Shown: positions 2,346 to 5,276 of the stretch, piece after piece
How positions within the stretch are numbered: position 1 is the first letter of the stretch
Layout: each line of letters opens with the position of its first letter
Assembly: GCF_009931435.1 (NCBI RefSeq)
Contig: NZ_CP043414.1
Length of the DNA: 64,000 nucleotides
Direction: 5' to 3' (one strand)
Origin: Escherichia coli
GTDB lineage: Bacteria; Pseudomonadota; Gammaproteobacteria; Enterobacterales; Enterobacteriaceae
Made by a program: the position numbers and the translations under genes
Notes under the pieces: model-generated
Database searches by the model: none
What the model was told of the DNA's origin: nothing
What the model saw: only the letters and a program-made list of their open reading frames with translations

Positions 2346-3261
2346 GAATCTTGACCTTTTTTGCTGTTATCGCCACTCCCTGCCGTGGAAGTCAGCTTAG
2401 AACAATGTACTCCCCCAGGACGGCGTTTTGAAGGTCTGCAGAATAAGATTTTGCCAGAGGGGAAGACTCGATTGTGCTGTTAATAACTTAATAATGGCAA
2501 AATAATGAGGTGTATATGCTTAGTAATTAATGTTATGTAGTGAATTGTTCTGATTCTTAATTGTGAGTGTGGTTTTTTTATCTGTAAGATAATTGTTTGA
2601 AAATGCCTCGTTTAAGAATTCACTAATGAATCGTGATGATGATATTTCCGCATTACGGAGAGTTTAACAGCGTGATGATTTCCGAGGTGTCGTAATGGGT
2701 GCAAGGTGTGAAACTATTGTTAAGCGGGATTAATGAATGAGGATGATGCTAATTAATTATTATTTAATATTCAAAAAGGTTTTGTTGTGCTTATTAATAA
2801 TAGAAGATTACTTTGCCTAACATAACATAACTTTGCATCAGATAATTCGCAATGACCCTTATAAATAAAAGGTTTTTGGGGTAAAATGCTCGCATAAATG
2901 ACGGATCCCTGCTCTTGATGCCGCCTCACCATTGCTGTTTGTACGTGTTCGCGTATGACCAGCGATGCTGCACGAGAGTGGAACAAGGACTCACATTTAC
3001 ATTTATACAAACACGCGCATGTCATAAATACAAAAGAGTGAGTAACTTAATAGATATGCGATTCCTGAAGATATATTCTGTGATCTACTTCAGGCATTAT
3101 AACGGAACAATGTGAGTCGCTTTTTTAGTGCAACTCATATGCATTTTTACTTTCGTCCGGGTTCCGGATGAAACTGCCAGGGAGGCACATTACAAATGGA
3201 ATTGCTTGTTTGTGTGTGCACAGCATTAACCAGCTCAGTACGAGCCGCCAGTAAGTGATAA

Positions 3262-4203
<942 letters not shown>

Positions 4204-4247
4204 TCGACGGACCATAGATAATTTCTAAGACAATAGTGTAAAAACGA

Positions 4248-4286
4248 GCCGCTGGGGGTGTTTTAAACCCCAGCGGCTTTTTTTTA
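4248..4286 (+). terminator. Rho-independent terminator downstream of lrhA
   Basis: GC-rich inverted repeat gccgctgggg / ccccagcggc followed by a run of 9 T. Confidence 0.7.
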
Positions 4287-4832
4287 GTAAAAAGCCTTCC
4301 TCGTATCGTGCAGAACGCACAAAACTGTTCATTTTTCAATCACCAGAGATTCACGTCCCGAACGCACAAATAATCGCCTGAAAAAAATCACCTGCTACAA
4401 TGATGTTAAAAAATACGTAAATTTGTTGCTGCGTTTTTGTTATGGAATGACAAAAGCGTGTCACAGATCAAGAAAATACTCTCTTTTGGGGGGAGGAATC
4501 GACACAAATTCCTGTCAAAATAGACCCGTATTTTTTCCATTGCTTCACAACGGACACGATTCAACAACATCTAATTATCCTGGAGTCGTCAAGGATCTGG
4601 GGTGAAAGGGCATTAAATGCTAATAGTGTTGATATTATGTAAACTAATGTGAAGAAACTTTTGTTAAAGTTGACAAAAGGTTATAGAAAGGAGTAAAAGA
4701 CCACATCAATTAGCTGTATAAAAGAGTTTCTACAGTGATTGTAAGGTTTTTTTTATTCCTCCCCATGAATCGATGTGGCGTCCATCTGCCGTGAAGAGCA
4801 GTGAATCTGGCGCTACTTTTGATGAGTAAGCA

Positions 4833-5276
4833 ATGAGTATGTCAACATCCACTGAAGTCATCGCTCATCACTGGGCATTCGCTATCTTTCTTATCGTTGC
4901 CATTGGCCTGTGTTGCCTGATGCTGGTAGGCGGTTGGTTTTTAGGCGGTCGCGCACGCGCGAGGTCGAAAAACGTTCCGTTTGAATCCGGTATCGACTCG
5001 GTCGGCTCCGCCCGCTTACGCCTGTCCGCCAAGTTTTATCTGGTGGCCATGTTCTTCGTTATCTTCGACGTTGAAGCGCTGTATCTGTTCGCATGGTCAA
5101 CCTCTATCCGCGAAAGCGGCTGGGTAGGCTTTGTGGAAGCTGCAATTTTTATTTTTGTGTTACTGGCTGGTCTGGTTTATCTGGTGCGTATTGGCGCGCT
5201 GGACTGGACGCCCGCGCGTTCACGCCGCGAGCGTATGAACCCGGAAACGAACAGTATCGCTAATCGTCAACGCTAA
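4833..5276 (+). CDS. nuoA: NADH:quinone oxidoreductase subunit A
   Basis: 147 aa membrane protein, first gene of a 13-gene cluster with complex I order. Confidence 0.93.

Follow-up and report, generated by a model that had tools for sequence, protein, structure and literature searches.

The 629 bp between lrhA and nuoA (4204-4832) in the stretch of Escherichia coli DNA analysed here (64,000 nucleotides of contig NZ_CP043414.1, hereafter the window) correspond to the known regulatory region of the nuo operon, which probably operates at two levels, as DNA over approximately 4400-4705 and as RNA over 4705-4832, with a leaky attenuator formed by the terminator-like hairpin SL2 in the RNA portion. 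The nuo control region is already known and published and our analysis adds to it a map of constraint and a structured, abundant leader. NADH enters respiration in E. coli mainly through complex I, and the nuo operon is a textbook example of regulation by many global factors. The features discussed below are collected in Table 1.

Table 1 Features of the lrhA-nuoA region in window coordinates
Feature	Coordinates	Strand	Details
lrhA terminator-like hairpin and T8 run	4246-4285	+	Stem 4248-4257/4268-4277; T8 at 4278-4285
Non-conserved spacer	4286-4399	.	Mean identity 0.31, 78 species
Putative distal promoter	4393-4408	+	Extended -10 TGcTACAAT (4393-4401), start 4408
Upstream control DNA	4403-4625	.	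Per-base conservation in 81 sequences and alignments
Spurious 60-codon ORF	4423-4605	+	TTG start, 60 aa, no ribosome-binding site
Further published RNA ends upstream of P1	4528-4608	+	Start 4528; '+1' 4570; Term-seq 3' end 4608
Candidate CpxR-like site	4639-4653	+	GTAAA-N5-GTGAA; 9/10 against the CpxR consensus; near-invariant, 81 species
Inverted repeat	4658-4679	.	CTTTTGT (4658-4664) / ACAAAAG (4673-4679); straddles the -35 hexamer; near-invariant
Main promoter P1	4670-4705	+	-35 TTGACA 4670-4675; 18-nt spacer; -10 TAAAAG 4694-4699; start A4705
SL1 hairpin	4707-4741	+	CAAUUA.CUGUA ... UACAG UGAUUG; 2 nt from the 5' end of the P1 transcript
Pyrimidine tract	4747-4764	+	U8-AUU-CCUCCCC; unpaired in the predicted fold; highly conserved
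Candidate Cra-like site	4766-4774	.	TGAATCGAT; resembles a Cra half-site; conserved
SL2 terminator-like hairpin	4775-4816	+	Outer stem GUGGCGUC/GGCGCUAC; inner CUGCC/GAGCAG (4786-4801)
U-tract	4817-4823	+	UUUUGAU; published RNA 3' ends at 4819 and 4823
RyhB pairing site	4826-4844	+	nuoA ribosome-binding site, start codon and first codons
nuoA CDS	4833-5276	+	ATG 4833; first gene of the complex I operon

On the evidence of the sequence and the list of open reading frames lrhA occupies 3265-4203 on the plus strand, and of the spacer that follows it 547 bp (4286-4832) lie beyond the lrhA terminator, in agreement with the original prediction of about 550 bp. The hairpin preceding the T8 run has a perfectly paired GC stem with a folding energy of -27.9 kcal/mol and is kept in K-12, and the published lrhA 3' end falls upstream of it at approximately 4234. 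An A-run found 5' of the hairpin could allow it to act in both directions. The K-12 MG1655 spacer is 630 bp long (2405073-2405702), carries no annotated feature, as is also the case in strain 042, and differs from the window by about a dozen substitutions and one 1-nt indel. The flanks are annotated as lrhA and nuoA in both MG1655 and 042, and this is therefore the same locus. A 751-nt query gave a single match per genome in 5423 of 5426 complete E. coli genomes. The window is ordinary E. coli and its lrhA-nuoA spacer is orthologous to the K-12 nuoA-N control region. A consensus promoter and terminator scan of 4150-4900 returned 0 matches, which is uninformative because the rules of the scan exclude elements that lie there, namely the P1 -10 (no T at position 6), the lrhA terminator with its 10-nt loop and SL2 with its internal loops. 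A cmscan of 3900-5200 against Rfam 15 on both strands (E<=10) gave chance-level matches only, all far under their gathering scores.

Transcription of nuo begins at several positions in published K-12 data. Starts from SMRT-Cappable-seq at 2405200, 2405210, 2405230, 2405252, 2405377 and 2405497 (PMC6131387, supplementary file 4) correspond to 4705, 4695, 4675, 4653, 4528 and 4408 in the window, and in the scheme that we propose 4705 would be the main start, used by P1, with weaker starts at 4695, 4675 and 4653 and distal starts at 4528 and 4408 among near-invariant blocks of sequence. A sigma-70 promoter tabulated for nuoA, TTGACA-18-TAAAAA (PMC3946193), maps to 4670-4675/4694-4699 and agrees with the start at 4705. 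The -10 hexamer reads TAAAAG in the window where K-12 has TAAAAA; we rejected G4699 as a peculiarity of this strain as it is the majority E. coli allele, and 4275 of 5423 E. coli genomes share the same 57-nt core of P1. Transcripts from K-12 2405497 (4408) extend to nuoA-nuoC in the SMRT-Cappable-seq data; the extended -10 element given for this start, like the promoter hexamers of the minor starts, is a putative assignment made from sequence. The '+1' used by Chareyre et al. lies at 4570 (PMC6497325, oligo PBAD-nuoA-F), a position absent from the SMRT-Cappable-seq capped starts, and the Term-seq 3' end at 4608 (K-12 2405297) is represented by 31,207 reads. The Cappable-seq supplement holds no entries for the lrhA-nuoA region. 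The six capped starts together with the tabulated sigma-70 promoter support the multi-promoter control region that had been proposed from the length of the spacer.

The same locus in K-12 is the subject of Bongaerts et al. 1995 (Mol Microbiol 16:521) and Wackwitz et al. 1999 (Mol Gen Genet 262:876), and the regulators reported for nuo are ArcA, NarL, FNR, IHF, Fis, Cra and CpxR. Regulation by NarL and FNR is attributed to Bongaerts 1995 in PMC1805755 and regulation by ArcA to Bongaerts 1995 and Park 2013 in PMC12210985, Fis is reported to bind several upstream nuo sites (Wackwitz 1999; Zhang 2004), Cra binding 5' of nuoA was observed by ChIP-exo (PMC5888115) and CpxR sites have been reported in the nuo promoter (PMC8831704). 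The expectation of multi-regulator control is likewise supported by this regulation and binding (NarL, FNR, ArcA, Fis, Cra and CpxR), and the alternative of one promoter near nuoA with no regulated sequence upstream is contradicted by the mapped starts and the reported regulators. The CpxR-like and Cra-like sequences of Table 1 and a NarL-like AGGAGTA at 4689-4695 resemble the respective consensus sequences, and the first two are leads only. The GAATCGA motif is also present at 4496-4502.

Comparison across the family shows how strongly this region is constrained. Of 80 Enterobacteriaceae species, about 60 have lrhA and nuoA 628-639 bp apart. Identity to the window averaged 0.72-0.75 over 4400-4832 and 0.93 over 4637-4700, as compared with 0.485 for the four-fold degenerate sites of lrhA and nuoA and 0.31 for 4290-4399 (78 species). 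In the 430 bp 5' of nuoA change has been much slower than at synonymous sites, and the conserved blocks keep a fixed spacing. Near-invariant blocks were found in 81 sequences at 4403-4413, 4425-4438, 4445-4480, 4489-4500, 4508-4523, 4551-4568 and 4605-4625, and between them lie spacers that are variable in sequence and fixed in length; the length of the region is nearly constant. The blocks within 4403-4625 are presumably bound by the published regulators (ArcA, NarL, FNR, IHF, Fis, Cra and CpxR), and their spacing would be held by the demands of helical phasing and DNA bending. A third copy of the ACAAAAG arm of the inverted repeat at the -35 hexamer occurs at 4450-4456. Inside the non-conserved spacer the window carries a 17-nt direct repeat (4307-4323 and 4354-4370) that is specific to E. 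coli.

The constraint 5' of 4705 acts on the DNA and is not accompanied by covarying RNA structure, whereas RNA-level constraint is found 3' of 4705, so that the two are split cleanly at the P1 start. With 81 sequences RNAalifold recovered almost no consensus structure or covariation upstream of P1 (-14.4 kcal/mol over 313 nt, of which the covariation term is -0.71). This result speaks against the idea that the conserved 300 bp 5' of P1 act mainly as RNA, in the form of a long, structured and riboswitch-like leader of up to 425 nt. In favour of such a leader are the capped transcripts from 4408 and 4528 that reach the nuo genes and the start of conservation almost exactly at the distal start, and a 463-nt long leader does fold more stably than shuffles (z = -3.7), with GAAAGGAGUAAAAGA (4686-4700) pairing with the U8-AUUCCU tract in this fold such that the structures of long and short mRNAs would differ. 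We consider it very improbable nonetheless, as it finds no Rfam match, as DNA bound by proteins typically shows invariant blocks set apart by spacers that vary in sequence but keep their length, as far-upstream binding has been reported for Fis and other factors and as the 3' end at 4608 suggests that many distal transcripts end before P1.

Least credible of all, in our assessment, is that a small protein or leader peptide underlies the conservation. Four ORFs come into question, the one at 4423-4605 and those at 4617-4652 (11 codons), 4649-4696 (15) and 4765-4794 (9), all of which are present in E. coli and would be carried by distal transcripts, and one of which, with its ATG at 4617, has AAGGG 6 nt before it. 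None displays three-base periodicity of conservation. The approximately 12 nt preceding the longest (aaatacgtaaatTTG) contain no purine-rich Shine-Dalgarno sequence, and among 80 Enterobacteriaceae the frame is open only in Escherichia sequences although the DNA is conserved. The Escherichia versions comprise that of the window, one in E. albertii with TTA in place of the start and one in a second E. coli without the stop, and in every other genus a frameshift near 4433 leads to a stop by codon 5-9; the suspicion that this ORF is spurious and lacks a ribosome-binding site is therefore well founded. As for the others, the ORF at 4617 is variable in its middle and changed at its end by a 1-nt indel, that at 4649 shows nearly no nucleotide variation even at synonymous sites, which is no coding signature, and overlaps the -35 and -10 hexamers, and that at 4765, the only ORF within the P1 leader, is preceded by CCUCCCC rather than a Shine-Dalgarno sequence and has lost its start or shifted frame in several genera. 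No conserved ORF with a ribosome-binding site was found overlapping the terminator, as ribosome-mediated leader-peptide attenuation would involve. An ORF on the minus strand (4406-4570) was also rejected, being intact in only 15 of 81 sequences. The original prediction had left room for a leader peptide or a leader RNA structure, and of these the structured leader is present while the peptide is unsupported, the ORFs not having been kept.

The last approximately 125 bases 5' of nuoA encode what is, by its predicted fold, a conserved leader RNA with two hairpins, of which we found no discussion in the literature searched. It has no paralogues in E. coli, occurring in one copy per genome, and our model of it (R1) matches only the leader. 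For SL1, 9 of 11 pairs have changed on both sides, pairing in a fixed register is seen in 73-76% of cells and a 5' hairpin is also predicted separately in most genera. For SL2, the RNAalifold consensus contains three compensatory pairs, 98-100% of cells are paired as against 22-46% in slid controls, and 0 of 500 shuffles attain the observed score; its energy is -15.3 kcal/mol in the window and ranges from -10 to -17.5 across 73 species. The folding energy of the leader is not exceptional (z = -1.5), and the support for its structure therefore comes from covariation and not from stability. SL1 may protect the 5' end of the P1 transcript. An extension of SL2 by AUCGA/UUGAU was judged weak, at 75.7% paired.

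No conserved alternative pairing that could serve as an antiterminator, nor a ligand-sensing alternative to SL2, was found in the leader, and because of this we speak of a leaky terminator and not of a regulated attenuator. The one candidate antiterminator, CCACAUC(AAUU)/(AAUC)GAUGUGG, was rejected since it lies mostly 5' of the 4705 start and has no supporting covariation. The CCACAUC/GAUGUGG pairing is broken in Kluyvera, and the CCACAUCAAUU/AAUCGAUGUGG repeat is not kept in Kluyvera or Klebsiella. We also set aside a long-range pairing of GGGGAGGAAU (4490-4499) with AUUCCUCCCC (4755-4764), which amounts to a single repeat near chance expectation whose motif is not enriched in the window; covariation is uninformative here, both arms being invariant.

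Published RNA 3' ends lie directly after SL2. In the Term-seq data of Adams 2021 one end at K-12 2405086 (282,730 reads; Rho score 0.82, 'No'; intrinsic-terminator score 11.56, where a score of at least 3 is predictive) and another at 2405082 (475,924 and 124,622 reads) correspond to 4819 and 4823, with read counts that match those of the abundant sRNAs ChiX and CyaR. The 4819 end, recorded in LB at OD 0.4, falls within the U-run. In the mechanism that we favour the P1 transcript would present SL1, then the free U8-CCUCCCC tract and then SL2 with a short U-tract 15-16 nt before the start codon; part of transcription would stop at 4819-4823 while the remaining polymerase reads through into nuoA. 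SL2 would thus be a leaky Rho-independent terminator, or attenuator, yielding a stable leader RNA of approximately 115-119 nt, a length that combines a 5' start (4705) and 3' ends (4819/4823) mapped in separate datasets. The tract after SL2, UUUUGAUG, has 5 U in 8 nt of which only 4 are consecutive and is short for an efficient terminator; all 73 distinct leaders have 3-6 U among the first 8 nt that follow the stem. Against an attenuator stand the shortness of the U-tract (UUUU then GAU), which implies that termination would be inefficient, and the high coverage of nuo mRNA downstream (609 vs 259 reads in 800-nt windows).

Term-seq does not distinguish termination from processing, and it is possible, if clearly less probable than termination, that the ends at 4819 and 4823 are products of RNase E cleavage in the A/U-rich initiation region (UUUUGAUGAGUAAGCAAUG), with SL1 and SL2 guarding the 5' fragment that survives. 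SL2 would on this account have been kept as a stabiliser, or as a spacer holding the start site single-stranded, rather than as a terminator. Most 3' ends in 5' UTRs were estimated by Adams et al. to be processing products, and the ompA 5' UTR, a classic stabilised leader, gives an equally abundant fragment in the same data (284,198 reads); the short U-tract and the abundance of downstream mRNA fit processing also. The ompA fragment scores only 1.65 as an intrinsic terminator, however, against 11.56 for the nuoA leader, the LB OD 0.4 end lies inside the U-run, and in each of the 73 leaders the stem is followed at once by a tail rich in U. The 4823 end does coincide with the base of the extended SL2 helix, but conservation of the AUCGA/UUGAU extension is poor (75.7% paired). 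We infer that the ends arise by termination rather than by processing.

A further reading gives the leader a role in trans. The pyrimidine tract is anti-Shine-Dalgarno-like and is the exact complement of the conserved GGGGAGGAAT at 4490-4499, which distal-promoter transcripts contain, and a leader of approximately 115 nt could as a 5'-UTR-derived sRNA or sponge pair through U8-CCUCCCC with purine-rich, Shine-Dalgarno-like RNAs and in this way link other genes to the nuo promoter. We think this unlikely. An architecture of 5' hairpin, single-stranded conserved tract and terminator hairpin is what such an RNA would have, it reaches the read counts of ChiX and CyaR, the tract is conserved beyond structural need and other 5'-UTR fragments act as sponges according to Adams et al., but the conservation of the tract could be explained equally well by a function in cis or by a site in the DNA, and one 10-nt inverted repeat in approximately 550 bp is near chance (about 0.1-0.15 by our own estimate). 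The 3' U-run of only 4 U is moreover short for Hfq-dependent sRNAs, no target, Hfq/ProQ binding or phenotype is known, the literature searched yielded no link of nuoA to an RNA of this kind and one RIL-seq supplement has no nuoA entry. The broader proposition, that the last approximately 120 nt 5' of nuoA are an uncharacterised family-wide RNA element, a leaky attenuator whose RNA of approximately 115 nt acts in trans via U8-CCUCCCC or is sequestered in cis in distal transcripts, and in either case ties other genes to the activity of the complex I promoter, seems to us similarly doubtful.

Transcripts that are read through into nuoA meet a further layer of control. Pairing of RyhB with nuoA has been validated by compensatory mutations (PMC6497325), in which the mutated bases AGT>TCA correspond to 4836-4838. 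We predicted a duplex of RyhB nt 37-61 with 4806-4844 at -19.3 kcal/mol, using the RyhB core in place of the whole molecule, for which the prediction was no better than shuffles, and AAGCAATG (4828-4835) within the site is near-invariant. In the proposed mechanism RyhB would pair with 4826-4844 on the transcripts that escape termination and block translation in iron starvation.

A structured and highly abundant nuoA leader RNA adjoins the RyhB site, and if the leader attenuates or acts in trans it would provide an extra, post-initiation layer of complex I control. The reporter fusion used for RyhB, which began at 4570 (PMC6497325), contained the whole leader, and this would then matter for the design of reporters. 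Our map of selected bases across 80 species could in addition guide the placing of published footprints.

When compared with the K-12 nuoA-N region the window has the same gene order, promoter (TTGACA-18-TAAAA(A/G)) and published regulator set, and differs at the last base of the -10 hexamer, which is G where K-12 has A. The nuoA-N operon of Pseudomonas putida (PMC6072106) likewise has a long, multi-site complex I control region, with two promoters and four Fis sites over approximately 150 bp, centred -145 to -290 from the start codon, where Fis activates; it belongs to another bacterial family, shows no detectable sequence similarity and has no reported leader hairpins. As in the repression of sdhCDAB and sodB, RyhB covers the ribosome-binding site and start codon of nuoA, which is one component of the region and does not explain the length of the spacer. 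In ompA the 5'-terminal stem-loop is reported to protect the mRNA from RNase E (Emory, Bouvet and Belasco 1992). The nuoA leader resembles the ompA 5' UTR in that a hairpin sits approximately 2 nt or less from the 5' end and that the 5' fragment is abundant and stable, and differs from it in its terminator score (11.56 vs 1.65) and in that the stabilising role of SL1 is putative. Among the 3' ends in 5' UTRs of Adams et al. 2021 the end of the nuoA leader is present in the tables, with its score of 11.56 and no Rho dependence, and goes undiscussed in the text. The ispU leader (6-bp stem followed by U8, score 14.1) shares with nuoA the arrangement of a hairpin and U-run between transcription start and start codon, and while the U-run of nuoA is shorter (4 U) its leader is additionally supported by family-wide covariation.

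The spacer between lrhA and nuoA is gene-free in the window sequence and measures 629 bp, of which 547 bp lie 3′ of the T-run following lrhA, matching the original prediction of about 550 bp between the lrhA terminator and nuoA. Of 5426 complete E. coli genomes, 5423 contain a single match to a 751-nt query, always flanked by genes annotated lrhA and nuoA. The K-12 MG1655 spacer is 630 bp long, carries no annotated feature and is separated from the window by one 1-nt indel and about a dozen substitutions. The window is therefore ordinary E. coli and the observation of a long spacer is confirmed. Judged by sequence, the hairpin and T8 at 4246-4285 look like the lrhA terminator, and with an A-run 5′ and a T-run 3′ of the hairpin bidirectional termination is possible. 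Published Term-seq data assign to lrhA a 3′ end (K-12 2405672/3, ~41-47 thousand reads) that maps to ~4234, upstream of these elements, and list none at the T-run itself. Upstream of lrhA (~2970-3265) there is a long lrhA leader with published RNA ends, namely capped starts at K-12 2406799 and 2406820 (~3107 and 3086 in the window), an 'orphan' 3′ end at K-12 2406691 with a terminator score of 3.75, 50 nt 5′ of the lrhA ATG, and further 'orphan' 3′ ends at K-12 2406927/2406933 (~2973-2979).

Features of the lrhA-nuoA region, in window coordinates
Feature	Position	Strand	Details	Basis
lrhA	3265-4203	+		sequence and ORF list
GC-rich perfect hairpin 3′ of lrhA	stem 4248-4257/4268-4277		followed by T8, 4278-4285	sequence
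SL1 (leader hairpin)	4707-4741	+	starts 2 nt past 4705	predicted in E. coli fold
SL2 (leader hairpin), outer stem	4775-4782 with 4809-4816	+	GUGGCGUC with GGCGCUAC	RNAalifold
SL2, inner stem	4786-4790 with 4796-4801	+		RNAalifold
nuoA	ATG at 4833	+	nuoB and nuoCD next	sequence and ORF list

The nuoA promoter is tabulated as TTGACA-18-TAAAAA in a genomic SELEX paper (PMC3946193) and corresponds in the window to 4670-4675 and 4694-4699, the last -10 base being G. K-12 and all other genera carry A at this position (4699; TAAAAG in the window). Since 4275 of 5423 E. coli genomes share the 57-nt core with G4699 unchanged, the K-12 A allele is a minority, ancestral-looking one. SMRT-Cappable-seq places nuo capped 5′ ends at K-12 2405200, 2405210, 2405230, 2405252, 2405377 and 2405497 (PMC6131387), which become window 4705, 4695, 4675, 4653, 4528 and 4408 respectively (K-12 = 2409905 - window, verified on the nuoA start codon). 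The start at 4705 agrees with the tabulated promoter (hereafter P1) and that at 4408 with an extended -10, TGcTACAAT (4393-4401); the '+1' of Chareyre et al., TCTAATTATCC at 4570, differs from the other starts (PMC6497325). The arms of a perfect 10-nt inverted repeat, AAAAAATACG (4408-4417) and CGTATTTTTT (4527-4536), begin at or beside the distal starts 4408 and 4528.

NarL and FNR (cited in PMC1805755), ArcA (cited in PMC12210985) and CpxR (PMC8831704) are reported regulators of nuo, several upstream Fis sites are reported or cited (PMC12210985) and Cra has been located at nuo by ChIP-exo (PMC5888115). The small RNA RyhB base-pairs across the nuoA ribosome-binding site and start codon and thereby represses the gene, as shown with compensatory mutations (PMC6497325); the bases mutated in that test are window 4836-4838, and the predicted partner of the RyhB core is 4806-4844. 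Given these published starts and regulators, the reading of the spacer as a multi-promoter, multi-regulator control region is correct and already known: it is the published nuo control region, not a new one.

An 'orphan' Term-seq 3′ end lies at 4608 (K-12 2405297; 31,207 reads, LB OD 0.4), ~100 nt 5′ of the main start, with no clear terminator hairpin or U-run 5′ of it. Its source must be the distal promoters (starts 4408, 4528 or 4570), which implies that some distal transcripts end before P1 as short upstream RNAs.

We compared the nuoA locus of 80 Enterobacteriaceae species, 81 sequences with the window. The upstream neighbour is lrhA in all 80 species. About 60 of them have lrhA 628-639 bp from nuoA, with longer spacers in Klebsiella and Raoultella (about 655-660 bp) and insertions in Intestinirhabdus alba (959 bp), Kosakonia oryziphila and one Buttiauxella (both about 750 bp). 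Mean identity to the window is 0.485 at four-fold degenerate sites of lrhA and nuoA, 0.31 at 4290-4399, 0.72 at 4400-4704, 0.75 at 4705-4832 and 0.93 at 4637-4700. A 17-nt direct repeat, CGTGCAGAACGCACAAA (4307-4323) and CGTCCCGAACGCACAAA (4354-4370), with its copies 47 bp apart, occurs where the spacer lacks conservation outside Escherichia. Near-invariant blocks (4403-4413, 4425-4438, 4445-4480, 4489-4500, 4508-4523, 4551-4568, 4605-4625 and 4637-4720) are separated by variable stretches that almost never change in length, the segment 4400-4712 measuring 303-315 nt, mostly 310-313, in 81/81 sequences. Two derived substitutions mark the window and K-12 at 4447-4454, on the border of the most conserved block upstream: both carry GGAATGAC, where E. 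albertii, a further E. coli and every other genus carry GGATTAAC.

Coding does not account for these blocks. The ORF at 4423-4605 (TTG start, 60 aa), which looked spurious for want of an RBS, is indeed spurious: it lacks a Shine-Dalgarno sequence and is open in Escherichia sequences only among the 81. Every other genus has lost it through a deletion of 1 nt near 4433 and stop codons by codon 5-9, with the DNA still conserved. A minus-strand ORF (4406-4570) is intact in only 15/81 sequences, ORF 4617-4652 varies in its middle and has its end altered by an indel, ORF 4649-4696 is nearly invariant including synonymous sites and shares bases with both the -35 and -10 hexamers, and several genera lack the start or the frame of ORF 4765-4794. 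RNAalifold on the 81 sequences found almost no RNA structure upstream of the P1 start (-14.4 kcal/mol over 313 nt, covariation term -0.71). Protein-binding sites held in helical register would be expected to leave such a pattern, with invariant blocks set apart by variable spacers of fixed length. The region probably works on two levels, DNA and RNA, and at the DNA level global regulators bound to phased sites across ~300 bp would govern initiation from P1 as well as from the minor and distal promoters. The P1 -35 hexamer lies at the centre of an inverted repeat, CTTTTGT-N8-ACAAAAG (4658-4679), and a third ACAAAAG is found ~220 bp upstream (4450-4456); all copies are invariant across the family, and the arrangement resembles an operator bound by a dimeric factor, perhaps with looping.

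Two further sequences form a perfect inverted repeat of 10 nt: GGGGAGGAAT (4490-4499), Shine-Dalgarno-like without an ORF, and ATTCCTCCCC (4755-4764), anti-Shine-Dalgarno-like and in the leader, with 255 nt between. Both arms are near-invariant in the 80 species, so covariation is uninformative on their pairing. The fold of the long distal-promoter transcript pairs the pyrimidine tract instead with GAAAGGAGUAAAAGA (4686-4700), and its exposure may therefore differ between long and short mRNAs. A local inverted repeat AGGAAT/ATTCCT (4494-4499/4508-4513) has a variable 8-nt spacer.

Downstream of 4705, RNAalifold on 73 distinct leaders predicted SL2, in which both bases have changed in three pairs (GC>AU in 15 sequences, CG>UA in 14 and UA>CG in 19), and SL1 was predicted separately in most genera from differing sequences. 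Scored on an alignment made from sequence alone, the proposed structure pairs in 86.4% of cells vs 27-46% with slid partners, and 0/500 shuffles matched the observed score; 98-100% of cells pair in SL2 and 75.8% in SL1, where both sides changed in 9/11 pairs. A covariance model built from that alignment gave one match per locus, in the leader only; pairing counts were unchanged on the model's own alignment, but this alignment is biased towards the model. The region matched no Rfam family and the folding energy of the leader is unremarkable on its own (z = -1.5). Of the leader RNA structure or leader peptide originally left open, the structure is supported by the covariation of SL1 and SL2, and a peptide is not supported by its candidate ORFs across genera.

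RNA 3′ ends are also seen in vivo in the leader. Adams et al. 2021 tabulate, in their supplement, Term-seq 3′ ends at K-12 2405086 (282,730 reads, LB OD 0.4) and 2405082 (475,924 reads in LB OD 2.0; 124,622 in minimal medium). These map to 4819 and 4823, 14 and 10 nt 5′ of the nuoA ATG, within UUUUGAU immediately 3′ of SL2. For the LB OD 0.4 end the Rho score is 0.82 ('No') and the intrinsic-terminator score 11.56, at least 3.0 being taken as predictive by the authors. Across the 73 leaders SL2 has -10 to -17.5 kcal/mol, 3-6 U in the 8 nt 3′ of its stem and 15-16 nt from stem end to ATG. The same tables give 445,279 and 552,306 reads for ChiX, 112,316 and 325,335 for CyaR, 92,121 and 36,200 for Spot 42, 175,710 and 82,465 for the lpp terminator and 284,198 for an ompA 5′-UTR fragment. 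Their text does not mention nuo, and we found no literature tying nuoA to attenuation, Term-seq or RIL-seq. The one lead from the region is this nuoA leader RNA, which is abundant and conserved and has gone undiscussed.

We favour a reading in which SL2 is a leaky Rho-independent terminator, so that some transcripts would end there as a stable ~115-119-nt RNA and the remainder would read on into nuoA. The short U-run and plentiful downstream mRNA speak for the main rival, that the short RNA is left over from decay after a cut in the A/U-rich start region and is shielded by SL1 and SL2; we consider this somewhat unlikely, as the terminator score is high, one of the 3′ ends lies within the U-run and the U-rich tail is conserved. 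No antiterminator was found in the nuoA leader, and regulated attenuation is accordingly not claimed. At the RNA level, the P1 transcript presents in order SL1, a free U8-CCUCCCC tract, SL2 with its short U-tract and the RyhB-targeted start region, and SL1 probably serves as a 5′-end protector of the type known from ompA.
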